A stretch of 64,000 nucleotides of DNA from the NCBI GenBank assembly GCA_964512485.1, contig CAZEHJ010000004.1:3400-67399 (forward strand), given 5' to 3'. This stretch comes from an uncultured Rhodothermales bacterium (GTDB lineage Bacteria > Bacteroidota > Rhodothermia > Rhodothermales > UBA10348). Within the stretch, counting starts at the first letter, position 1; each line of letters starts with the position of its first letter. The notes below the pieces were generated by a model. That model was not told the origin of the DNA. It saw nothing but the letters and a program-made list of their open reading frames with translations, and searched no databases. This document shows, piece by piece, positions 1,120 through 13,450 of this stretch. The position numbers and the translations under genes are program-made.

Positions 1120-4100
1120 ATGCGGACTCTCAACACACCGCGACAAATACGAAACTCGGGACGTGCGCTTCTTAGCGTTCTCTTGTTGTGCCTCCTTTAT
1201 CCGCTTTTCGGCCCTCAGCTGAATGCCCAGGCCATTGGAGACTTCAGATCCCGCAGGAATGGAAACTGGAGTAAAAGCAACCGCTGGGAAGAATACACGG
1301 GCGCCGGTTGGACCAATACCGGAAACACGCCTAATTCAGCGGACGGCGTGATAACGATCCGAAACGGACATAATATCCGCGGCAACGTCAACGCTAATTA
1401 CGATGAGGTCATCATCGAAAACGGCGGAAGTCTCGATCTGACGCAGGTTTTTAAAGTCGTTGATGGCCCTGGAATTGATCTGCAAGTGCATGGAATCCTT
1501 TCTGTCAATCGAAATGTGCGTGTCAGGGGTACGGCATCAGCGTTTTTTTACTCGACGTCCGACGTTGATTTCGGGGGCGGCAACAAGCTCAGATTCGAAG
1601 ACACTACCACAGCCACGTTTGATGGCGGTACAGTTGCAACCGCAAACGGCACATTCCAGGTCGAAGACAATGCTGTAGTCCAGGTGAACAATGGGACCGT
1701 GATAACCAATACGGGCAGAACACTTGTCAGGAACAGTGGATCTCTTACGCTCACTTCGAGCACAGTTGTCAATCAGGGCTTGTTTGACATAAATGGATCT
1801 GGCGCAGTTACCTTCGCGAATGGATCGATATATGAACACGGGCAGGACGGCAGCTACTTCCCGATTGCTGTCAGAACGACGTTTCAGGCTGGTTCTGAAG
1901 CGAGGGTCACCGGTGTTACGACGACCCTTCCTACGAGACTCAACCACACGTTTGACAAGTTCACGTGGAACTCGACTTCTCAAACAGCCGATCTGGACCT
2001 GGCAGCCGGAATTACAGCGATAAACGACGATTTCACCGTTACATCGACTGGAACGGGCTCTATCACTTGGGATGCGTCGGGGTCTGCCACAACTATCGGC
2101 GGTGACTACATCCAATCCGGCGGGGATTTTCGCTATTCAGACACCGGTTCCACCACGATGACCGTTTCAGGCAATCTGGATGTCAACGGTGGTACATTTG
2201 ACATCGCCAATACCTCCGGTACCCCAATTGTAGCCGTCGCCGGCAATTTTTCCGTTACAGGGGCCATGACCGAATCAGGAACTGGCTCTGGTACGGTCCT
2301 CCTGAACGGAGCAGGCGCACAAACCATTACTGCCAACGGTACTCTTTCGGGAAACATCCATGTGACTACCGCTGGCGCTGGACTCGCTTCGCTTACTACT
2401 GATTTGTTGGTCCCGGGAAATCTTACTGAAACGAGCGGTGGGCTCGATTTGGCCAACTTTGGCCTGGAGGTGGAAGGCAATCTCAGCATCACCTCCGCCC
2501 TCTCAAATACCGGACAAATCCTCTTTTCGAGCGCTACGGCAGCTCAACTGCAGCTTCCTGCCGGCTCCAAGACGCTTCCGGATGTTGTTATTGACAAGCC
2601 AGCCTCGTCTCTCACGATTCTTGCTGACGTTGCGACATCGACGACAGTCATCGTGAGGAATGGCACGCTCGACACCAACGGCTTCGAGTGGCTGCTGCCC
2701 CATGGGACAACTCTTTACAACACAGGTACTGTGACGGGAAATGTCACCATTCAGCGCTCATATTCCCAGAACAGCGATGGTTGGAGAATGCTGGCAGCAC
2801 CCGTAACGGGTCTCATGTATAGCGACCTGAATACCTCATTCTGGACGCAAGGAGCCCCTTGGGCATCAAAAATAGAGGGAACGGCAAACCTGCAGTCATT
2901 CGATTTCGCCTCTCAGGGCTGGACTGAATTAGGCGGAGCTGACGCCGGCTTCGGGACCGGTGGCGGCTACATCTTCTATATGTACGCGCTGGATGACCTG
3001 GGAGCACCAATTTTGCCAGCTACCTGGACTGCAACGGGTACTCCGGGAGCGATGGGAACCATGGGCCTCTCTTTCGCGACCGCGATATCAGATTCGTACA
3101 ACCTTATGGGCAATCAGTCCACCACAAATCTGGATTGGGACCTGACGCATGCTGCCAGTACCAACATGGAATCGTCGTATGCCACCTGGGACCCTTCGGT
3201 CACAACGGGTGGTGGCACGACAGGATACAAGTATTATGATGCAACCAGTGGACTCGGAGCGGCCGGTCGGTACGTAGCCCCCTTCACCTCATTCATGGTT
3301 GCCGCCAATGCTGGTGGAGCTCAGATTGTCCCGACCTCGAGCGAAGCGGCTTCCCGACAAACTGCCGTCACGTACGGTAAAAACAACCGCATTGCACCAC
3401 ATTTCCGCCTTTTGCTTGAAGGTGAGGGACTTGCCGAAAACGAGACCTATCTCTCGTACGGCGGCGAGGCCACAGACGAATCCGGTGAATTTGACGTGCT
3501 GCGCCTGCACCCCCTCTCTCTCGATTTTGTGACCCTTTGGTCTGAATCTGATGGACGCAGGCTGGCATTTGACGGCCGCACCATGGACGAAGGTCGCGAA
3601 ATCTACGACCTCACAGTTGCAGCGACCCGAAACGGACAATATTCGCTCACATTGCTTGGCAAACACAAAATCCCCGATTCCTGGACCGTTACGCTTGTTG
3701 ACCTTCAGACGGGCAACAAGGCTGACCTGAGTAACGGCGAAGAAATGCTGTTCCAGACGCGCTCTGAAGACATCGTGACGGTCAATTCAGGCTTCGAATC
3801 CACACGCGCTCCTCGATTCAGGGTGATCGTGACGGATTCAAATCGAACGGTGGAGGCATCTGAAGACCTTTTCGCACAGACAGATGTGCCCGTTCTGAGC
3901 CAGAATTACCCAAATCCCTTCAATCCATCTACTTCGATCCGTTATTCCATCCCACGTTCATCCGTGGTTTCTCTCGAAGTATTTGATGTCCTCGGTCGTC
4001 GTCTGGCCATTCTTGTGGACCAGACTCAGGATGCCGGCTGGCATGAAGTGAATTTTTTGTCTGGAAATCTTGGAAGTGGCACCTATTTATACCGCTTAGT

Positions 4101-4146
4101 CGTTGATGGCCAATCGTTTAGTAGGCCTATGCTCCTGCTTAAGTAG
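1120..4146 (+). CDS. Large secreted adhesin-like protein with beta-helix-type repeats and T9SS C-terminal sorting domain
   Basis: Signal peptide (..QLNA|QA); N-terminal GDFRS..GNW..W..ITIRNGH motif; G/T/N/S-rich repeats of the type xVxGN(L/F)xVxGG; C-terminal SQNYPNPFNPST..VFDVLGR..GTYLYRL..MLLLK CTD (~3892-4146). Confidence 0.8.
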   Translation: MRTLNTPRQIRNSGRALLSVLLLCLLYPLFGPQLNAQAIGDFRSRRNGNWSKSNRWEEYTGAGWTNTGNTPNSADGVITIRNGHNIRGNVNANYDEVIIENGGSLDLTQVFKVVDGPGIDLQVHGILSVNRNVRVRGTASAFFYSTSDVDFGGGNKLRFEDTTTATFDGGTVATANGTFQVEDNAVVQVNNGTVITNTGRTLVRNSGSLTLTSSTVVNQGLFDINGSGAVTFANGSIYEHGQDGSYFPIAVRTTFQAGSEARVTGVTTTLPTRLNHTFDKFTWNSTSQTADLDLAAGITAINDDFTVTSTGTGSITWDASGSATTIGGDYIQSGGDFRYSDTGSTTMTVSGNLDVNGGTFDIANTSGTPIVAVAGNFSVTGAMTESGTGSGTVLLNGAGAQTITANGTLSGNIHVTTAGAGLASLTTDLLVPGNLTETSGGLDLANFGLEVEGNLSITSALSNTGQILFSSATAAQLQLPAGSKTLPDVVIDKPASSLTILADVATSTTVIVRNGTLDTNGFEWLLPHGTTLYNTGTVTGNVTIQRSYSQNSDGWRMLAAPVTGLMYSDLNTSFWTQGAPWASKIEGTANLQSFDFASQGWTELGGADAGFGTGGGYIFYMYALDDLGAPILPATWTATGTPGAMGTMGLSFATAISDSYNLMGNQSTTNLDWDLTHAASTNMESSYATWDPSVTTGGGTTGYKYYDATSGLGAAGRYVAPFTSFMVAANAGGAQIVPTSSEAASRQTAVTYGKNNRIAPHFRLLLEGEGLAENETYLSYGGEATDESGEFDVLRLHPLSLDFVTLWSESDGRRLAFDGRTMDEGREIYDLTVAATRNGQYSLTLLGKHKIPDSWTVTLVDLQTGNKADLSNGEEMLFQTRSEDIVTVNSGFESTRAPRFRVIVTDSNRTVEASEDLFAQTDVPVLSQNYPNPFNPSTSIRYSIPRSSVVSLEVFDVLGRRLAILVDQTQDAGWHEVNFLSGNLGSGTYLYRLVVDGQSFSRPMLLLK

Positions 4147-4274: not shown

Positions 4275-4781
4275 ATGAAGAAAATGAAATTAACTGTTAT
4301 TGTGACCGGGCTGATCCTGTTTGCAGGATTGGCCACCACCGCAAAAGCGCAGTCTGACAATCATCTGGTAAACGTCGAAGTGCAGGCAATCAACGAGATT
4401 GCAATCGCGGCTGATGTTACACTTCAGATTACGACTGCAACGGCTGGTTCCGATCCAACGGATGCTACTGACAACACTTCGTATGCAATAACGACGAACG
4501 ATGCCGGTGGAACAACCAGAATTACAGCAGCTACGAGCGTCGACCCAGCCACGTTGGGTGATGGTCCTGCTGGTGTAGACATCCAGGTAAACGCAACTGC
4601 TCCTACGGGCGGTTTGGGTGCCGGGAATATTTCTCTCGGAACCGTTGCAGCTAACGTTGTAACCAGTATCGACCCTGTTTCTGAAGGAACACTGACACTC
4701 GCTTACACGCTGAGTGCCACCGCCGAAACTGGACAGCTGGCTTCAACTGCCGTTACAGTTACCTACACGATCGTCAACTAA
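4275..4781 (+). CDS. Secreted pilin-like subunit 1 (putative major subunit)
   Basis: Sec signal peptide (AKA|QS); A/T/V/G-rich beta protein with no Cys; N-terminal alternating LVNVEV strand; C-terminal VTVTYTI strand; paralogous to the next two ORFs. Confidence 0.65.
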   Translation: MKKMKLTVIVTGLILFAGLATTAKAQSDNHLVNVEVQAINEIAIAADVTLQITTATAGSDPTDATDNTSYAITTNDAGGTTRITAATSVDPATLGDGPAGVDIQVNATAPTGGLGAGNISLGTVAANVVTSIDPVSEGTLTLAYTLSATAETGQLASTAVTVTYTIVN

Positions 4782-4832: not shown

Positions 4833-5369
4833 ATGCGTAGAACAATGCCCATACTGTGGTTATTTCTCGCATGGATCGTTTTGTTTTGGGTTCCCGACTC
4901 AAGGGCCCAAGTCCCTCCTCCTCTTCCTGACGCGCTCATAATGGCGGCATCCAGCCTGACCCTAAGCCAGTCGGTGACGGTTTCCGTTCAGGAAATCAAC
5001 GAACTTTCTATTTCCGGGGATGTGGCAATTACAATTTCCACTGCTTCACCGGGCTCCGGACCTGATCCTGAGAACGACACCTCCGCCAGCTACAATCTGA
5101 CCACCAACGGAGCCAACAAGAAGATTACAGGCTCGATAGATGTGGCCTACACGGCTGGAATCACCCTCTCTCTATTGCTGGCAGCGCCTTCTGGTGGCTC
5201 AGCATCCTCAAAAAACCTCAGCACCACGGCTCAAGACCTCGCCACCGGATTCGGCCTCACAGCTGAATCCAGCCTTGGCATCACCTATACAGCATCCGCG
5301 ACCGTTGACGTAGCTCCGAACGGCCTTGGTGAAACGCGTACGGTAACGCTTACGCTGATGGACAACTGA
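4833..5369 (+). CDS. Secreted pilin-like subunit 2 (Pro-rich N-terminal extension)
   Basis: Signal peptide (SRA|QV); shares VxVxVQxINE..I.xDV..I.TA..GS.P, SY..TTN, AP.GG, Y..SAT and the C-terminal TVT.T motifs with subunit 1. Confidence 0.65.
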   Translation: MRRTMPILWLFLAWIVLFWVPDSRAQVPPPLPDALIMAASSLTLSQSVTVSVQEINELSISGDVAITISTASPGSGPDPENDTSASYNLTTNGANKKITGSIDVAYTAGITLSLLLAAPSGGSASSKNLSTTAQDLATGFGLTAESSLGITYTASATVDVAPNGLGETRTVTLTLMDN

Positions 5370-5370
5370 G

Positions 5371-5880
5371 ATGAGAACATGTAGCCAACATATTCTCAGA
5401 CTTTCCGCAGCAAGCCTGGTCATCCTGTTCAGCCTCCTTTCTGCCCCACAAAGCCGGGCACAGGAGTTTCGCTACAATTCAGGCGGTGGCCCGCTAACTC
5501 TGCTGATCCAGACGGCGACGGCAGGCTCAGAGCCGAATGATGCCACTGACAATGCAACAGAAATCTACTGGGATGCCAACTTCGGCGCCCCATCCAAAAT
5601 TACAGTCTCGACTATCGCACCAGGCCAGTCTTTCCAGCTCTTCCTTTTACTTAGCGTACCAAGCCAGGGTGGTGGTGGACAAGGTGTTGCGCAGCCCGAG
5701 GTCACGTTAGTTGACGGGATGCTCGATGCAGACCTGTTTACAGACATTCCCTCCACCCTGCCAGGACGGCAAGGTTTTGGCACGCTTGAATACCGTGCAG
5801 CCGCTACAGTTGCTGATGGCAACAGTTCGATGCACGGAGATGACGTTCACATAGTCACTTTAACCGTTTTAGCCCAATGA
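5371..5880 (+). CDS. Secreted pilin-like subunit 3 (lacks the N-terminal strand)
   Basis: Signal peptide (SRA|QE); TATAGSEPNDATDN nearly identical to TATAGSDPTDATDN of subunit 1; KIT, LEYRAAAT and C-terminal IVTLTV motifs. Confidence 0.6.
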   Translation: MRTCSQHILRLSAASLVILFSLLSAPQSRAQEFRYNSGGGPLTLLIQTATAGSEPNDATDNATEIYWDANFGAPSKITVSTIAPGQSFQLFLLLSVPSQGGGGQGVAQPEVTLVDGMLDADLFTDIPSTLPGRQGFGTLEYRAAATVADGNSSMHGDDVHIVTLTVLAQ

Positions 5881-6698
5881 GCAGACAAATAGCCCTCATA
5901 CTCACTCTTTTGATGCTGGCTGTTCCTTCCTCTTCGAAGGCACAAATTTCCGTCAGATCTCAGCTTTCACAGGACACCAGCGCCCAACCTGGTGAATCCT
6001 ACGTGGGATCGATACTGATTCGCAACGATACGGATGAAATTCAGCAGGCAAAGATTTATCAGACGGATTATCTGTTCCAGTCTGACGGGTCAAACTATTT
6101 CGGCGATCCAGGAACGATTGAACGTTCAAATGCAAAGTGGATCGACGTTGCATCTTCATCCATGATGGTCCCTCCTCGTGAAGCCATCGAGGTAAGTTAT
6201 CGCGTGAACGTACCAATGGACGTAGATGCCGAACCTCTTCAGGGGTCGTACTGGAGCATCATCATGGTAGAGGGCATTCCCAAGAGCTCTCCAGAGAATA
6301 TTGAGAACGATGTACCAGACGATGCTCTGGGAATAATTCAGGTCACTCGCTACGGTGTACAGGTTGCCACTCACATTGACGGCACCGGCGCTGCAAACCT
6401 GACAATCAGTGAATCAGCTCTGTCCAAAAGCGAAGGCAACATTGCTTCTCTGCAACTGAGCGTGGCAAACGAAGGCGACAAGCTTGTCAGGCCTGAAATC
6501 TGGGTTGAGCTCTACGATGAGGCAGGAAACGCCCTTGGACGCATCGACGGAGTCAATAACCGCATTTATCCAGGAACGAGCGTCAAGCAACAGATTGAAC
6601 TGGGTAAACTCGAAATCGGAAGATACCGGGCCCTTGTCATCATGGATGCCGGAGACGATGAGGTGTTCGCGGCCGAATACAATCTGAACATCGACTAA
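5877..6698 (+). CDS. Periplasmic two-Ig-domain chaperone-like protein (PapD-like / DUF916-like)
   Basis: Signal peptide (SKA|QI); W.DV....VPP..A.EV.Y.V.VP, GSYWSIIMVE, acidic loop then LGIIQVTRYGVQV; second Ig domain with NEG..LVRP..W.ELYD..G and G.YRALVI.D; ATGA overlap with subunit 3. Confidence 0.6.
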   Translation: MSRQIALILTLLMLAVPSSSKAQISVRSQLSQDTSAQPGESYVGSILIRNDTDEIQQAKIYQTDYLFQSDGSNYFGDPGTIERSNAKWIDVASSSMMVPPREAIEVSYRVNVPMDVDAEPLQGSYWSIIMVEGIPKSSPENIENDVPDDALGIIQVTRYGVQVATHIDGTGAANLTISESALSKSEGNIASLQLSVANEGDKLVRPEIWVELYDEAGNALGRIDGVNNRIYPGTSVKQQIELGKLEIGRYRALVIMDAGDDEVFAAEYNLNID

Positions 6699-6735: not shown

Positions 6736-9700
6736 ATGAGACGATCTAGTTACATATCGGTTGTTCTGTTAATCACGGGATTGTTCGCCGTCGCACCAAG
6801 CGCAACGGCGGCTTTTTCTTTTGAAGAGGTTTCTCGGCAGGACGAAGTGTCCATCGATATAATCGGCGGAGACAGCCTTGCTGTGGACCCGGGCGATGTT
6901 GTAACACTGGTCTACAAGATCCACTCAGACCAATCGGGTGTTCGCAATCTGACTCCATCTTTTGACATTCCACAGGGATGGAGCGTCGTTTTTGGAACAG
7001 ATACGCTGAAATTGAGCCCTGAAGAACCCACGACCCGATTGGTGACCTACAAGGTTCCGGAGTCGTCACTGGCCGGTTCCTACAAGATCAACCTTGCGCT
7101 CCTTGACGCAGAGGGAAATGCGATAGGAAATAAAAGTGCCGGTATTGGAGTCAATGCAATTTTCGCGATCGACCTGGATGCAGACCCCATGGAAACCTAT
7201 GCGGCAGCCGGAAAGCTGGTTCAGGTCACTTTCACGCTTTCAAACGACGGCAACGCACCCATCTCTGTGAACCTCGATGCTGTCGACCGCAAGTTTGCTG
7301 ACGTTCGCCTACCATATTCCAGCATTGATCTGGCTCCGAAAGAGTCAGTCACCTTTACTGCCGAAATCAACACAGATGCCAATCTCGATCACACCCAGCG
7401 GGCAAACCTGCGATTTGAAGCCCAGATCGCCGAAAAAAGTGAAATATTCGATTTTGAAACTGTAGCGTTTGATATCGTACCCGTCTATTCCCGAATCCGT
7501 CCAAAAGCGGCCAGAGTGCCTCTGAGCCTTGCTCTTGAAACAGTGGGAGACGAATCCGGAATAATGCCCCAGGCCACAATCGCTGCACAGACTCACCTTT
7601 TGGGTGGCAACGTATCTGTGATTGCTACCCTTGCTGAGATGCCACGTCAGAAGTTCTTCGGAGCGGATCAGCGACTCGAAATTCAGTACGAGAACGAAGA
7701 TGTGACCGTAAAACTCGGCGATCACTCTCAGTCCATCTCACCGATGACGCTCACAGGAGAGCAAGGACTCGGAATTGGAGCAGAAGTTAAAACTACAGAC
7801 TGGACGTTTAAAGGCACTGTCCAACGTTCACGATTCGTATTCCCAGTACAGGAACGATTCGCTGCCTCAGCCGCCTACCAGACATCACCATCGTCCTTTG
7901 TAAGCGCTAACTTGCTGCACCGCAACGAATTTTACGATGGCACCTTACTTACTTTGAGAAGTTCTTCGCAGCCGCTTGGTTCTTCTTCCCGTATGGATGT
8001 CGAGTGCGGAATCGACTCTTCTGAAGCGTTGCGAGATCCCTCCTGCTCGGTTCAGTTCTCAGATAGTGGCTCCCGATTGTCGTACCGAATACGAGCTCAG
8101 AAGGCGTCGGAGTCATTTCCCGGCACACTGGCAGGACTACGCCAGATTTCCGAATACGCATCCTTCAGGCTGAACGACAGATTCCGCCTCGACAATACGT
8201 ATAGACGTTTCGATCGATCGTTGGGCGGCGGATTTGCGCGTTCGAGTTCTCTCGCGAAGGCTGGAGTCACATATACCGATCGCATTCACGGAGGTACATT
8301 GTACCTGACGGCGCATGGTATCCGCACTAAATCGACCTATTCCAATATTCGATCAGACGCGGATCGATCTGAACTTATTGCTCGAACAACCCTGGGATAT
8401 CACATGCGTTCCATAGGGTTAACGGTATCTATGGAGGAAGGTAGAACGACCTCCACCAGCGAGCAGAAGGCAGGGAGTCTGCGCCGTTTCAAGACCAATT
8501 TCAGAGTTTCTCCTCTCCCAAGATGGACGCTGAACGCGTCAGTTGAAGCATCGACGGGCAGCCTTTCCGCTCTTTCTGTACGTCAGTCGCAGAAGCAGTA
8601 TGGTCTCGGCTCCACGATCAGCCTGCCTCGTGAGTGGACGGCCAGTGTGATAGGATTTCACAGTCAGGTCAAAACCCTGATTGATCAGCAGTATTCATCT
8701 CTCAGAAGCGGCCTTTCCAAGTCATTTCGGTCCGGTCGTACTCTTTCCGCCCAGGTTCAGCTGAACCGGAGTACGGGTCGTAGTACCGTTCAAACGGCAG
8801 ATTACCGCCTTTCATTTACTACTCCACTTTCCATGCCGTTTGGTGGAAAAGGATTTGACGATGAAATGCTGCGTGGTCGCGTGACCGATGAAGAAACGGG
8901 ACTCCCATTGTCAGGCGTTCTCGTATTTCTGGGCGACAAACTTGCTATCTCTGATGACAAGGGACGATTTGTCTTCCCGAGACCTGAACTGGCTGTAGAA
9001 TTCCTTCGCGTAGATCAGAACAGTATCGGCTATGATCGCACACCCGCCGCCGCCATGCCGATGGAAATCGATCCATCCTCGTTTCTGAACTCAGAATTGA
9101 ACCTGATCATATCCAAGGCTTCCAGTATTACCGGAGACATTTTCATCTACCACAACAGTGCAAGCAGCGACCTGCTCGTTGGGAATCCATCAGACAAACT
9201 GGTTCAGGAAGGCGGAATCAATGGCGCGATAGTTCAGATTTCCAATGAGAAGCACAGACAGCGTACGAGAACATCACGCAGCGGATCTTTCAGGTTTGAC
9301 CAGCTTCCATCCGGCGAATACACTATTGAGATTATTCGCATTCAACACGAAGAACACCAACAGATTAGCACGACTTCGTTTAAGGTTTTTGTAAAGCAGG
9401 GTGAAAGTGAATACGTGCTATTCAGGGTGGAGCCGAAACGCAAGTCGATAAGGATGATTCAGTCTTCGACCCTGTCAGTAGGTGATCCTAAAGACAACAT
9501 TCGAAAAATACCTGTCCTCAAAGGAGATCACGTTTCTTCGGATTCCGTGAAAACCAAAAAGAATGATTGGAAGGCTCGCACTCCAAATCCTGAAACGCCT
9601 GTTCGAAATGAATCCAAACCTGCAAAAGGGAAATGGTCAGATCAGATGCTGGACTCTGCCAAAGAAGCCCCAAGCGATTCTCTGGACGCATTCTCTGCGG

Positions 9701-10551
9701 TATCAATACCGTATTACGTTGAAATAGAGGGAAATACAGCCAACGAGAAGAGATCCGGGCTCGTCATGCTTCTCTTTGTCCTGTGTGTGCTATTCGTCCT
9801 CCTGGACGTGGATCTTCTCGTTCGCCATGCGATGGATTCATTTGGCGGTCCCATCAAGTCGATGAATTCACCAGTCTGGCTCTGGACGATCAGGCAGGCA
9901 GCTGTTTATGCTCTTGGAATTGGATTTTTTACTCTCTGGGCTGGTGTGCTCGAAGGATTCGCTGTATCTCTGGCTCTTGGAGGCATTACAGTAGCCGTCG
10001 AATCGTGGAATACGTACCGAGCAATTGGGAATATCATGAACCTGACCTTCCTGAGACGGGCCGGATCGGGGTCCTGGATTCCATATAGAAACTCCACTGC
10101 TCGCATCGTCTCGATTTCCCTTGAGTCCGTCGAACTGGAGTTACTGAACGGAAATACCGTCAAAGTGGCCACCCATGCAATTCGACGCCTGTCACCGCGG
10201 AAATGGACGAGTAACTCAGTGGTAACAAATGAGTTTGAAATCCAGATATCCAGGATGTCCAATCTGAAGCTGGTCCGAAGCAGCATTGAGGAGACTCTGG
10301 CCTTGTACGCTCCCGAAGGAACATCCGGAAACGTCCATATCGAGTTTATAGATGTAAATGAAAGTGACACAATTGCTTCGATACGGACCGTAATCGACAA
10401 AGCTCGTCCTGATCATGGCATCATCAGTGCTGTGGTTGAGAAAGAGCTTGCCGCATACGGTGTTGAGCTGAGATCCGTCAGGCTTCATGCGCCAGATTCG
10501 CCCTTCGGCCCGCTCAAACTGGTTCAGCTCCCCGGTACCAAAGCGGCCTGA
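6736..10551 (+). CDS. Usher-like outer-membrane protein (2 Ig domains + beta-barrel + 2 carboxypeptidase-regulatory-like domains) fused to a C-terminal MscS-like module
   Basis: Signal peptide; aa ~38-250 two NEW3/COG1470-type Ig domains; aa ~261-700 amphipathic beta-strands; aa ~712-900 GRVTDEETGLPLSGV..SDDKGRF and GAIVQI..TSRSGSFRFDQLPSGEY; aa ~1005-1255 three hydrophobic helices plus MscS-like cytoplasmic domains. Confidence 0.6.
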   Translation: MRRSSYISVVLLITGLFAVAPSATAAFSFEEVSRQDEVSIDIIGGDSLAVDPGDVVTLVYKIHSDQSGVRNLTPSFDIPQGWSVVFGTDTLKLSPEEPTTRLVTYKVPESSLAGSYKINLALLDAEGNAIGNKSAGIGVNAIFAIDLDADPMETYAAAGKLVQVTFTLSNDGNAPISVNLDAVDRKFADVRLPYSSIDLAPKESVTFTAEINTDANLDHTQRANLRFEAQIAEKSEIFDFETVAFDIVPVYSRIRPKAARVPLSLALETVGDESGIMPQATIAAQTHLLGGNVSVIATLAEMPRQKFFGADQRLEIQYENEDVTVKLGDHSQSISPMTLTGEQGLGIGAEVKTTDWTFKGTVQRSRFVFPVQERFAASAAYQTSPSSFVSANLLHRNEFYDGTLLTLRSSSQPLGSSSRMDVECGIDSSEALRDPSCSVQFSDSGSRLSYRIRAQKASESFPGTLAGLRQISEYASFRLNDRFRLDNTYRRFDRSLGGGFARSSSLAKAGVTYTDRIHGGTLYLTAHGIRTKSTYSNIRSDADRSELIARTTLGYHMRSIGLTVSMEEGRTTSTSEQKAGSLRRFKTNFRVSPLPRWTLNASVEASTGSLSALSVRQSQKQYGLGSTISLPREWTASVIGFHSQVKTLIDQQYSSLRSGLSKSFRSGRTLSAQVQLNRSTGRSTVQTADYRLSFTTPLSMPFGGKGFDDEMLRGRVTDEETGLPLSGVLVFLGDKLAISDDKGRFVFPRPELAVEFLRVDQNSIGYDRTPAAAMPMEIDPSSFLNSELNLIISKASSITGDIFIYHNSASSDLLVGNPSDKLVQEGGINGAIVQISNEKHRQRTRTSRSGSFRFDQLPSGEYTIEIIRIQHEEHQQISTTSFKVFVKQGESEYVLFRVEPKRKSIRMIQSSTLSVGDPKDNIRKIPVLKGDHVSSDSVKTKKNDWKARTPNPETPVRNESKPAKGKWSDQMLDSAKEAPSDSLDAFSAVSIPYYVEIEGNTANEKRSGLVMLLFVLCVLFVLLDVDLLVRHAMDSFGGPIKSMNSPVWLWTIRQAAVYALGIGFFTLWAGVLEGFAVSLALGGITVAVESWNTYRAIGNIMNLTFLRRAGSGSWIPYRNSTARIVSISLESVELELLNGNTVKVATHAIRRLSPRKWTSNSVVTNEFEIQISRMSNLKLVRSSIEETLALYAPEGTSGNVHIEFIDVNESDTIASIRTVIDKARPDHGIISAVVEKELAAYGVELRSVRLHAPDSPFGPLKLVQLPGTKAA

Positions 10552-10632
10552 ACAACCCCTTACAGCGCGGTTCAACCTGTCTGTATTGCCGGAAGGCGTT
10601 TGGGCCCGAAATCCGCACCGATCTGGATTCGG

Positions 10633-11097
10633 TCAATCTCCGAAGTTGAGAACTGATCCCTCGTATTCTTCCCCGTTAATCGAATAGCAATACTCGATCT
10701 GAGCGCTCTTGGCCAGCATTTCCGCCACCGAGCAGTATTTGCCCAGACCCAATTCGATCGCGCGCCTGGTCTTTTTCTCATCCAGAGTCCCTTCGAATCG
10801 ATAGGACAAGATGATGCGCTCGTAGGTTGAGGGCGAAACACCATCCGGTTTGAATCCATCAACTTGCATATTGAAGCCGGTGAGCTCCTGACGTCCTTTC
10901 TTTAGTATAGAAACGATGTCACCCCCACTGCAGGCACCGATCGCAATCACGATCAGCTGCATGGGGCCTACTCCGTTGCCGTCGCCATCTTCGTACGCCG
11001 TTGCGTCATCGATGTCAACCGAGTGGCCGTCAGCATTGAAGCCGCGAAAATGGAAATCATTGTCCTGTTTTTCAAGGCGAACAGATACTTTGCCCAT
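10633..11097 (-). CDS. OsmC/Ohr family (YhfA-like) protein
   Basis: GVGPMQL..AIGACSGGDIVSILKKGRQ and KYCSVA two-Cys motifs; probable start MGKVSV at 11097 (ORF track extends to 11151). Confidence 0.9.
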   Translation of the reverse strand: MGKVSVRLEKQDNDFHFRGFNADGHSVDIDDATAYEDGDGNGVGPMQLIVIAIGACSGGDIVSILKKGRQELTGFNMQVDGFKPDGVSPSTYERIILSYRFEGTLDEKKTRRAIELGLGKYCSVAEMLAKSAQIEYCYSINGEEYEGSVLNFGD

Positions 11098-11107
11098 CAG
11101 ATAGTCC

Positions 11108-11908
11108 TCAGTCGGTGGCGGATTCTTCTTCGTTCCAAGTCCAGGTACCAAGATCTTCCAAGGTGTGATAAGCCGTCAGGTCGTGTTGAATGGGTGTAAT
11201 TGAGACCCACCCATTTTCGACAGCCCATAAATCGGTGTTGTCGCCTGTGTCCAGGTTTACAAATGTACCTGATAGCCAGTAGTATGGTCTGTTAAACGGG
11301 TCGAGTCGTTCAGCAAACGACTCCTCCCACATGGATCTGGCCTGTCTCGTAACCATGCAGCCTTGTAATTCGGACAGCGGAAGATCTGGGACGTTCACGT
11401 TGAGCAGAATTCCGGGCATCAACCCTCCCTGCAGTACACGAACTGCTATATCTTTTGCCACTCGTGCGGATGCTTCGAAGTCGCCCCCTCCCCATTTGCA
11501 GTAGGAAAAGGCGATTGCGGGTATTCCCAGAATGGCCGCTTCTGTGGCCGCGCTGACCGTACCGGAATAGATCACGTTTACAGCCGTGTTGGGCCCATGA
11601 TTAATCCCAGAAACGACCAGATCAGGCTTTCTGGGGACGAGCTTGTCGAGTGCAAGCTTCACACAGTCGGCTGGAGTCCCCGAGACCGCATAGGCTTGAA
11701 TCTGACCCGATGGTCCCCGGAATGGCCAGGGCCGGGCTCTGACAGGATCACGCATCGTTATCGCATGGCCTACCGCACTCATTTCCTGAAGCGGGGCAAC
11801 GACTATCAGATCTGCAATTGAATCCAGAGCTGCAGCGAGCGACAGAATACCGGCAGCTTCAATTCCATCATCATTGCTGATCAGAATCAGCGGGCGATCA
11901 TTTTTCAT
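11108..11908 (-). CDS. surE: 5'/3'-nucleotidase SurE
   Basis: [39 protein letters not shown] motifs. Confidence 0.97.
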
Positions 11909-11976
11909 CTACGCATCATTGGTCTACACTTTGTGGCCTGGGCGAGTTGACTTACGCGATACTATCAACTCGAAGT

Positions 11977-12810
11977 TCAGTAGCTCTCATCATTCGACGG
12001 AAACTGACCGGTGCGAACATCGCTTATGTATTGCTGAACCCGCTCGGTAATAAGATCTCCCAGATGAGCATAACGACGAACAAAGCGTGGATTAAAATCA
12101 GTCGTTAATCCCAGGGCATCATGGGTTACGAGAACCTGGCCATCACAGGCTGGGCCTGCTCCTATTCCAATTGTGGGTACGGAAAGAGACTCCGAAACCT
12201 GCTTGCCCAATGGAGCCGGTATTTTCTCCAGCACGATTCCAAACACTCCCGCCTTTTCCAGCAGTACAGCATCCTCTTTCAACTCCTCTGCTTCGATCTC
12301 TTCCTGCGCTCGTACCTGGTAGGACCCGAAGCGGTAGATCGATTGAGGAGTCAAACCCAGGTGGCCCATAACAGGAATACCTGCCTCGAGAATGCGCTCG
12401 ACGATCGGGATCACGGTCTTCCCTCCTTCAACCTTCACAGCATGTGCACCGGACTCTTTCATCACCCGAACGGCCGAAGACAGAGCCTCTTTGGAATTGC
12501 CCTGATAGCTACCGAAAGGCAAGTCTACGACGACAAGTGCCCTTCCTACCCCCCGCACCACGCACTGGGCATGGTAGATCATCTGATCCAGCGTTATCGG
12601 AAGAGTAGTCTCATGACCCGCCATGACGTTCGATGCCGAATCCCCGACAAGGATCACGTCCAGGCCAGCAGCATCCAGTATACGGGCTGACGTGTAGTCG
12701 TAGGCCGTGAGCATGGCAATACGAACGCCGGAGCGTTTCATTTCCTGAAGGGTCCGGGTCGTAACCCTGACTGCCTTATCCGGAGATGGTCTGGTGGACT
12801 CTGTACTCAT
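11977..12810 (-). CDS. panB: 3-methyl-2-oxobutanoate hydroxymethyltransferase
   Basis: [40 protein letters not shown] motifs. Confidence 0.98.
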
Positions 12811-12852
12811 ATATATGGGGGCAGATATTTATGCGCGGGTCGCAATATAAAG

Positions 12853-12883
12853 AAAGGCGGGCGCCCTGTGGGCGCCCGCCTTT
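12853..12883 (-). terminator. Intrinsic terminator downstream of the bamA-skp-skp operon
   Basis: Perfect 14-bp stem AAAGGCGGGCGCCC/GGGCGCCCGCCTTT, followed on the minus strand by TTTCTTT; also T-rich on the plus strand. Confidence 0.85.
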
Positions 12884-12904
12884 TAAAGCGCTTCGAATTC
12901 AAAC

Positions 12905-13450
12905 TCAGTTCGAGGCAGTCGTGTCTTCTTCGATTTCAATACCGAGTGCCTGGGCAATATCGACATTGATATTGATAACCTTCTCAGGATTGACGTAAAG
13001 CAACGCAGGAGATCGAATGACGATGTCGAGTCCTTTCTCAGCTGAGATCGAATCGATTGCGTCCTGCACTTTCTGAAGCAGCGGTGCCATCAATTCGTCC
13101 TGACGTGCAGCCAGTTCCTGATCCTTGGCAGCCGCTGAATTCTGTATTTCTGCCTGGAGCGCGGCAAGTTCACCTTCTCGTTCTGCCTGACGTTCCGCCG
13201 ACAGGAGCGGCTGCTGACGCTGGTACCGATCAACGCGTTCCTGAAAGTCCTCTGCAAGCGCCTGAAGAGCATCCTGGCTCGTGCGGTACTCTACTGCAAT
13301 CTGCTGCTGGACGCCTTGATACTCAGGCATATACGTGATAATAATTTCAGGATCGGCATAACCAACCTTGAGAGCCTGTGCAGAGGCATCCGTCTGCGTA
13401 AAGCCTATCATCATGAAGGCTACTACGATGCTGAAAATGAATTTTTTCAT
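12905..13450 (-). CDS. skp: OmpH/Skp periplasmic chaperone (copy 2)
   Basis: Signal peptide, KVGYAD, coiled coil, L..KVQDAI..I..EKGLDIV; follows bamA. Confidence 0.9.
   Translation of the reverse strand: MKKFIFSIVVAFMMIGFTQTDASAQALKVGYADPEIIITYMPEYQGVQQQIAVEYRTSQDALQALAEDFQERVDRYQRQQPLLSAERQAEREGELAALQAEIQNSAAAKDQELAARQDELMAPLLQKVQDAIDSISAEKGLDIVIRSPALLYVNPEKVININVDIAQALGIEIEEDTTASN

Follow-up and report, generated by a model that had tools for sequence, protein, structure and literature searches.

MscS-like channels serve as the model of force-from-lipids gating, and the known additions to the channel core are extra transmembrane (TM) helices, helical periplasmic rings and cytoplasmic parts. 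In MscS structures, the cage of the heptamer is closed at its base by the C-terminal strand. It is force from lipids that gates MscS-type channels (PMC13591265), and the large periplasmic domains of MscK and MscM, each of ~470 amino acids (aa), form rings and modulate gating (review PMC13591265). Here we analyzed a window of 64,000 nucleotides (nt) of DNA from an uncultured Rhodothermales bacterium (assembly GCA_964512485.1, contig CAZEHJ010000004.1, positions 3,400 to 67,399), in which an open reading frame (ORF) of 1271 aa ends in an MscS-like core. All positions are those of the window unless a homologous locus is named. What is new is the permanent fusion of a minimal MscS core with three helices to ~985 beta-rich residues, predicted to be exported, that resemble an outer-membrane assembly platform.

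MscK (KefA) and MscM (YjeP) are the closest described kind; like the window protein, they begin with a signal peptide, carry a large N-terminal region outside the cytoplasm and end in an MscS core. In MscK and MscM, however, the TM helices number 11 and the periplasmic part is a helical bundle of ~470 aa, whereas the window protein has the 3 core helices and an all-beta part of ~985 aa, to which it adds a long disordered spacer, a probable membrane barrel and an operon with genes for a protein tailed for the type IX secretion system (T9SS) and for small secreted proteins. E. coli MscS (YggB; PDB 2OAU, 2VV5, 6RLD, 7ONL) resembles the C-terminal module in its three TM helices with the N-terminus out and the C-terminus in, in the hydrophobic positions L105 and L109, in its beta and alpha/beta domains and in the ...VK...KAA tail. 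It differs in having ~26 residues before the core instead of ~985 exported residues, and the family of the window protein is without the G113 and G121 glycines, carries Glu at A110 and has IPT or VAT in place of IPN. No description of such a fusion turned up in the literature searches, nor anything relevant on an usher-MscS or T9SS-MscS link, in agreement with the initial annotation of this DNA, made from the sequence alone, which knew of no usher-MscS fusion.

A divergent MscS core at the C-terminus of a 1271-aa protein

The last ~280 aa of the protein (nt 9706-10548) were confirmed to be a complete but very divergent MscS-superfamily core. The initial annotation had read this part as a complete MscS-like module, and the peptide segments that it quoted were all present in the frame of the ORF, in the order given. 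The ORF and the parts of its core were as follows:

6736..10551, + strand, whole ORF of 1271 aa, uninterrupted from the ATG start to the TGA stop at 10549-10551 (homologues of 1220-1343 aa have the same architecture)
9706..9756, + strand, juxtamembrane motif I-P-(F/Y)-Y-(L/V)-E with a nearly invariant P992, predicted to be periplasmic (family alignment)
9757..9843, + strand, TM1, aa 1008-1036 (helix 24-52 of the 287-aa segment modelled with AlphaFold2 (AF2); hydropathy)
9874..9942, + strand, TM2, aa 1047-1069, with invariant R1053 and Y1058 (AF2, alignment)
9946..10053, + strand, TM3, aa 1071-1106, equivalent of the pore-lining helix, with invariant E1089 (AF2 helix 87-122; hmmalign and hhalign to E. 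coli MscS)
10075..10191, + strand, equivalent of the MscS beta domain, aa 1114-1152, GSWI...NG...VATH (profile, AF2, PF00924 sub-threshold in 9/23 members)
10219..10485, + strand, equivalent of the MscS alpha/beta domain, aa 1162-1250 (profile, AF2, Foldseek, hhalign)
10486..10548, + strand, C-terminal tail, conserved ...L-(K/R)-L-V-...-K-A-A-COOH, compared with ...F-K-R-V-K-E-D-K-A-A-COOH of E. coli MscS

An alignment of the module from 23 family members (A2) was the basis for a profile and for AF2 modelling with a multiple sequence alignment (MSA). A search of 177,635 distinct PDB sequences with this profile revealed 14 MscS chains with E values of 5e-8 to 2e-3, and nothing else was significant. 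E. coli MscS and the YnaI-MscS chimeras matched at 5e-8 to 1.6e-6, the MscS of H. pylori and another MscS matched more weakly, and the alignment was collinear from TM3 through the end of the alpha/beta domain. The profile of the whole protein gave the same outcome, with MscS chains alone significant. When the family profile was compared with the E. coli MscS sequence (from MG1655) by hhalign, the probability was 96.7% (E 4e-10). The MSA-based AF2 model had a mean predicted local distance difference test (pLDDT) score of 80, mostly >90 in the soluble domains, and the top 50 Foldseek matches in the PDB all belonged to the MscS superfamily (MscS, YbiO, YnaI, MscK, MSL1, MSL10 and Flycatcher1), with E values down to 1.8e-10, a probability of 1.00 and ~250 aligned columns. 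As a control for artefacts of hydrophobic composition, a profile of the soluble domains only was used; it recovered E. coli MscS at E 0.003, and 200 shuffles gave E values of at least 76. The completeness of the module was borne out by the profile search of the PDB, hhalign and the AF2 model with Foldseek, and its collinearity with MscS was reproduced by the profile search, hmmalign and hhalign.

Several results counted against the assignment. Neither Pfam nor NCBIfam matched the window protein to MscS at E <= 1, and no family member reached the curated cutoff of PF00924, for which 9 of the 23 members had sub-threshold matches (the best at 20.1 bits, with the cutoff at 20.2). Of the two Pfam families proposed earlier as a check, PF00924 was thus seen below threshold in relatives and not in the window protein, while PF21082 was unmatched throughout, as was PF21088 in the scans of the module family. 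The TM-scores of the Foldseek matches were low (0.24-0.29), which was attributed to the unconstrained orientation of the helices in the monomer model. A profile of the TM part only failed to detect E. coli MscS, and no sequence signal was found in TM1-TM3a. The sequence evidence therefore lies in TM3b and the beta and alpha/beta domains, and TM1-TM3a rest on the structure model and on their continuity with the soluble domains. A few family members touched the full-length MscS models of NCBIfam. With a single sequence, phmmer of the module against the PDB sequences gave no match and the AF2 model was unusable (pLDDT 44), whereas the 23-sequence alignment made the model usable. The homology of the module is detectable at the profile and structure level only, and Pfam and NCBIfam thresholds miss divergent MscS cores such as this one.

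Hydrophobicity of the grade of TM helices (Kyte-Doolittle) was confined to the signal peptide (aa 3-29) and aa 1003-1089. The latter region, in which three hydrophobic helices had been noted behind the linker, was resolved by the MSA-based AF2 model into helices at 1008-1036, 1047-1069 and 1071-1106. Ahead of TM1 there were 0 Lys and Arg residues; the TM1-TM2 loop had 2 and the stretch behind TM3 had 3. Hydropathy and these counts give the three helices an N-out/C-in topology, which is compatible with an exported N-terminal part.

The identity of the module to E. coli MscS was ~13-14%. In the reproduced collinear alignment, G133-E-Y-V of E. coli MscS corresponded to G-S-W-I in the window and D159-G to N-G; MTVRLNELGASSINFVVRV was aligned to VHIEFIDVNESDTIASIRTV and IKREFDAAGISF to VEKELAAYGVEL, and the window segment VTNEFEIQISRMSNLKLVRSSIEE also fell in collinear order. 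The residues at key positions were as follows (E. coli MscS; window protein; family):

G104; G; G/S/A
L105 (gate); I (I1084); I/L/V/F
L109 (gate); V (V1088); mostly I
A110; E (E1089); invariant E
G113 (hinge); N; N/D/R/K, never Gly
G121 (hinge); I; I/V/L/A, never Gly
G133-x-Y135; G-x-W; conserved
D159-G160; N-G; N/D-G
I-P-N (165-167); V-A-T; I-P-T

At the alignment level, the gate positions were hydrophobic, with Ile and Val in the window protein and I/L/V/F across the family, and since the gate pair is kept as Ile/Val, the pore may still open. A buried Glu specific to the family (E1089) was found at the gate of the module. Because the hinge glycines are lost and this invariant Glu lies beside the gate, one would expect any gating to proceed differently than in E. 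coli MscS. The initial annotation had called the Gly/Ala pattern of the pore helix and the IPN motif degenerate, and this was partly the case: 0 family members had the hinge Gly at the G113 or G121 positions, and IPN was VAT in the window protein. These losses are unfavourable to a working MscS, and channel function may have gone with the hinge glycines and the IPN motif; however, the G113 and G121 hinges, which serve gating and inactivation, define E. coli-type gating and not the whole MscS superfamily. At the C-terminus, E. coli MscS ends in ...FKRVKEDKAA, the family in ...LRLVKGxxxKAA and the window protein in ...LKLVQLPGTKAA, and the 3' end of the ORF reads ...AAA GCG GCC TGA (K-A-A-stop). 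Judged by this comparison, the cage-closing strand and the terminal KAA appear to be retained in the module, with a variable insert of 0-45 aa ahead of the C-terminal strand. Their retention lends indirect support to a homoheptamer with a cytoplasmic cage.

Conservation of the fusion

The fusion is ancestral and selected, and neither a lost stop nor an assembly artefact. A search with the full-length query returned 16 proteins, 15 of which were 1253-1343 aa long and covered 95-100% of the window protein; the identity of the full-length homologues to it was 40-60%. When 1.84 billion cluster representatives were searched exhaustively with phmmer, 17 proteins were obtained, and every long one had the fused architecture. 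This search contributed four further long members, which brought the full-length homologues of the same architecture to ~20 in all. The weakest match (P0029, E 1e-3) was a bona fide small MscS (PF00924 E 1e-15, and PF21088). The word-indexed search with the module alone was insensitive, as it missed even the window's own protein, and its outcome is not evidence of absence. The homologues came from metagenome-assembled genomes of Rhodothermales and from metagenomes, and the one name given to them by the source was “hypothetical protein”. The family was rare, with 4 species representatives (two labelled Rhodothermales, one “Bacteroidetes” and one “uncultured bacterium”) among 185,579 GTDB species, and a metagenome scan added two more loci on Joint Genome Institute (JGI) metagenome contigs. 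It is a small, Rhodothermales-specific family.

At the DNA level, the giant gene formed one frame in L003/L007, L005, L006, L009 and L011. The linker ahead of the module was 74-111 aa long in the 16 homologues, never interrupted and always in frame despite many indels; that of the window protein, rich in K/S/D/P, measured about 76-85 aa, a little less than the ~100 aa first estimated. The relatives had no stop after ~aa 905 that would separate the module as a gene of its own, and the in-frame fusion proposed in the initial annotation was upheld. The lone “truncated” protein (P0003, locus L004) resulted from a single 1-nt indel (TTT versus TT) relative to the intact L006, as seen in a comparison over 3.8 kb at 91% identity, and the giant gene of L004 contained zero stops once the extra base was removed. 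This one-base difference in a T-run is most likely a sequencing error. Single frameshifts in the giant gene were seen in two assemblies (L004:13175-13176 and L008 around 9449-9479), the contig names of which suggest long reads.

The ratios of nonsynonymous to synonymous substitution rates (dN/dS, Nei-Gojobori) for the L004-L006 pair were 0.19 in the Ig-like part, 0.11 in the beta middle region, 0.06 in the pair of CarboxypepD_reg domains, 1.11 in the linker and 0.17 in the MscS module. The module is under purifying selection as a protein, and the linker is a sequence-neutral spacer kept in frame.

The exported part and a proposed role of the core

The features of the protein ahead of the core were as follows:

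6736..6810, + strand, signal peptide, aa 1-25 (...APSATA|AF, no lipobox Cys), with a hydropathy peak at aa 3-29 and a cleavage site predicted from the sequence
6886..7446, + strand, two Ig-like domains, aa 51-121 (NPCBM_assoc/NEW3) and aa 153-237 (DUF7507/FixG_C-like) (Pfam)
7471..8850, + strand, all-beta middle region of ~460 aa, aa 246-705, a probable outer-membrane beta-barrel by its period-2 pattern, ending in ...ADYRLSFTTPLSMPF
8851..9450, + strand, two CarboxypepD_reg (transthyretin-like) domains, aa 706-905 (PF13620 E 2.7e-12, two stretches)
9451..9705, + strand, low-complexity linker, aa 906-990, with a conserved G-W-x3-L-K-x-T-A-R motif in which W967 is invariant (alignment of homologues)

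In the Ig-like part of the window protein, PF10633 scored 25.1 bits (cutoff 24.4) and PF24346 stayed under its cutoff; the NCBIfam “choice-of-anchor T” matches to the second Ig-like domain in 7/16 members (16-19 bits, with a cutoff of 70) were uninformative. PF13620 was matched in 16/16 family members. The middle region contained 33 period-2 amphipathic segments, was rich in S/R/T/G, had no hydrophobic helices and kept a conserved Cys pair (C424/C437). As read from the sequence, it forms long hairpins with strands of 11-15 residues and turns of 2-4 residues, and its terminus ...ADYRLSFTTPLSMPF resembles what we take to be the last-strand signal of barrels. Given this pattern, there is a good probability that aa 246-705 form an outer-membrane beta-barrel.

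The initial annotation had called this part usher-like, which did not hold. The Usher family PF00577 was unmatched in the 16 members even at E <= 10, the profile search of the PDB with the whole protein found no usher and no outer-membrane protein, and hhalign of the barrel profile A3 against E. coli FimD gave a probability of 8% over 14 columns, compared with 96.7% for MscS by the same method. The neighbouring genes had no homology to PapD-like chaperones, and their one pilin-like signal was a FimA-like_C match below its cutoff. Usher identity was rejected as homology. The ushers FimD and PapC (PF00577) are alike in domain logic only, having periplasmic N-terminal domain(s), a large beta region and two C-terminal beta-sandwiches, and in a gene context in which the neighbours encode small secreted beta-rich proteins. 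They differ in the absence of sequence or profile homology, in having no inner-membrane module, and in their PapD-like chaperones and recognisable pilins, neither of which was recognised here. The usher likeness reduces to an analogy of gene order.

Two other designs can be compared. OmpA-type and PorE-type proteins have a beta region or a CarboxypepD_reg domain followed by a C-terminal peptidoglycan-binding domain. They share the logic of an outer part with a C-terminal envelope anchor, but the anchor of the window protein is an inner-membrane MscS core and not a peptidoglycan-binding domain. In type IV secretion, VirB10/TraF is one polypeptide that contacts both membranes. If the barrel prediction is right, the window protein would likewise be a single chain reaching the inner and outer membranes; VirB10 differs in its one N-terminal TM helix, alpha-helical outer-membrane antenna and opposite order of parts, and it has no channel core and no homology to the window protein.

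A paralogue located directly upstream of the cluster in L006 (L006:200-2011, cut by the start of the locus) showed what else can occupy the C-terminal position. It was 30% identical over aa 499-915 and matched the giant protein in its barrel end, its two CarboxypepD_reg domains and its low-complexity linker, but two peptidoglycan-binding SPOR domains (PF05036, E 7e-9) took the place of the MscS module, and the recovered part, which lacks the N-terminus, was without C-terminal membrane helices. A homologue search with a barrel alignment that included this paralogue returned P0003 and one unrelated weak match only. Since SPOR domains stand in the paralogue where the MscS module stands here, the C-terminal position carries alternative modules for envelope attachment, to the cell wall or to the inner membrane. 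The comparison of the two sequences suggests that this position of the scaffold holds an envelope anchor, and the paralogue points to a modular evolution of envelope tethering. It also fits an exported outer part that needs no inner-membrane helix of its own.

We consider it rather probable that the protein provides a heptameric MscS-type base in the inner membrane and that this base tethers the exported part of a surface structure whose genes lie in the same operon. The signal peptide would export the N-terminal part (~985 aa, with two Ig-like domains, the probable barrel of ~460 aa and two transthyretin-like domains), and TM1 would act as a stop-transfer sequence that sets the MscS topology with the N-terminus out and the C-terminus in. 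Seven copies of the module would assemble in the manner of MscS to form the inner-membrane base and its cytoplasmic cage. The exported part would join a surface structure with the T9SS-tailed protein, the three small secreted paralogues and the 273-aa secreted protein of the cluster, and the base would anchor and oligomerise it, linking it physically to the inner membrane. If the barrel prediction is true, the protein would be a rare single chain bridging both membranes, and a test bed for gating or modulation of an MscS core by a tether or for its use purely as a heptameric anchor.

Some observations are hard to reconcile with this tethered base. To our knowledge, there is no precedent for an inner-membrane ring of seven-fold symmetry in which each subunit is tethered to a barrel of its own. 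The middle region had no match in Pfam, NCBIfam or the PDB sequences and no homology to a known barrel, and the evidence for its insertion into the outer membrane is the sequence pattern. The module also occurs without the barrel at what we call collapsed loci, where, through internal deletion in frame, the 3' part of the giant gene follows directly on the 5' part of the cluster's first gene, the one for the T9SS-tailed protein. P0017, to which only the signal peptide of the first gene is contributed, and P0019, to which part of a different protein is contributed, both keep the whole MscS module, and the module may retain some function without the barrel. The dS between L014, which encodes P0019, and the full-length L005 was saturated, and dN/dS was uninformative. 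Three independent loci of this kind were found at the same chromosomal position, namely L001:1130-2263 (P0017), L014:8001-10748 (P0019) and L015:373-999 (P0028). The gene upstream was folD in the two with known upstream sequence (L001, L014), and osmC-surE or a CBM48 gene followed downstream.

An unlikely extension of the tethered base is that the chain spans the whole Gram-negative envelope and senses force, so that load on an outer-membrane platform carrying a fibre or adhesin, or a widening distance between the outer and inner membranes, is passed by the linker to the N-terminus of TM1 and gates the inner-membrane pore. In that case, surface contact or deformation of the envelope would become ion flux, and the protein would be a bacterial mechanosensor that is built from an MscS core and gated by a tether. 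This mechanism shares the evidence on architecture with the tethered base and is consistent with the still hydrophobic gate residues, with the purifying selection on the module, including its cytoplasmic cage, with the conserved motifs immediately ahead of TM1 and with a linker held at 74-111 aa while its sequence varies freely. The periplasmic domain of MscM influences gating, but the force that gates MscS-type channels comes from lipids (PMC13591265). A disordered spacer that evolves neutrally is also poor at passing force unless fully stretched, the hinge glycines required for E. coli-type gating are absent, and the outer-membrane insertion of the middle region is a prediction.

It is likewise doubtful that the whole N-terminal region of ~985 aa is periplasmic and that the protein belongs with MscK/MscM as a specialised channel, osmotic or ion-releasing, in which the domain modulates gating or binds the secreted proteins of the operon. 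Relatives of MscS with periplasmic domains of ~470 aa behind a signal peptide are known, no homology to any outer-membrane barrel family appeared in the searches made, osmC is a conserved convergent neighbour, and one polypeptide would not have to be assembled into two membranes. However, the amphipathic hairpins, the tight turns and the aromatic ...YRLSF..PF end, as assessed from the sequence, are typical of membrane barrels and not of soluble domains. The SPOR-ended paralogue has no C-terminal membrane helix, and on present evidence the scaffold needs no inner-membrane anchor. The disordered spacer of ~90 aa would moreover be superfluous if the domains sat directly on the channel.

That the two halves function separately, with the module made alone from an internal start or by cleavage of the linker, or that the fusion is an artefact of assembly or mutation, is very unlikely: the module stands behind nothing but a signal peptide in P0017 and behind part of a different protein in P0019, and the disordered linker could be accessible to proteases, but the fusion lies in one frame in ~20 full-length homologues despite many linker indels, the sole apparent truncation is one 1-nt indel, the internal start proposed in the initial annotation at ATG 9766 is M1011, which sits within TM1 and is unconserved in the family, and when 9300-10800 was scanned for sigma-70 promoters and terminators, which for this phylum is a weak test, no terminator appeared and no promoter-like site on the + strand preceded the module.

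Gene cluster and neighbouring genes

The giant gene was the last of a cluster, the other genes of which were as follows:

1120..4146, + strand, 1008-aa secreted protein with a T9SS C-terminal sorting tail, first gene of the cluster (PF18962 21.6 bits, cutoff 27)
4275-4781, 4833-5369 and 5371-5880, + strand, three secreted proteins of ~170 aa, paralogous to one another
5877..6698, + strand, 273-aa secreted protein, with a coding sequence that shares 4 nt with the preceding gene and ends 38 nt ahead of the giant ORF

Synteny was compared in L003, L004 and L006, where the upstream sequence was recovered. In these loci, the order was a T9SS-tailed protein of ~1006-1025 aa, three paralogues of ~165-190 aa, the 273-aa protein and the giant ORF; folD was upstream of the cluster in L003 and L004 and the SPOR-ended paralogue in L006. 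The intergenic spacings in the window from 4275 on were 52, 1, -4 and 38 nt, which is consistent with one transcript. The orthologues of the 1008-aa protein were flagged by PF18962, and the protein carried a conserved N-terminal GDFRSR..W motif.

The ~170-aa proteins shared a TATAGS.P..TD core and a ...VT.T...N C-terminus and are possible subunits of an undescribed surface structure. They had no match in the PDB, and the sole family signal came from FimA-like_C, which scored 22 bits in one paralogue group, that of the third protein, and so fell short of its cutoff of 27. In the 273-aa protein, no PapD-like chaperone domain was found with Pfam (PF00345/PF02753) and no PDB sequence match at E <= 10. 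It was highly conserved, with 62-69% identity to three orthologues and a mean column identity of 81%, and gave weak FxLYD and fn3-like matches only.

An OsmC-family gene (10633-11151, - strand) converged on the 3' end of the MscS-like gene; this arrangement was conserved, with a CBM48 gene in between in L003, and the pairing of OsmC, an osmotically inducible protein family, with an MscS-like module may be coincidental. The cluster also adjoined a conserved surE-panB-skp(ompH)x2-bamA-uppS-rseP-dxr block (11108-13450, - strand, in the window, and downstream in L003 and L004), and this block with bamA is probably mere neighbourhood.

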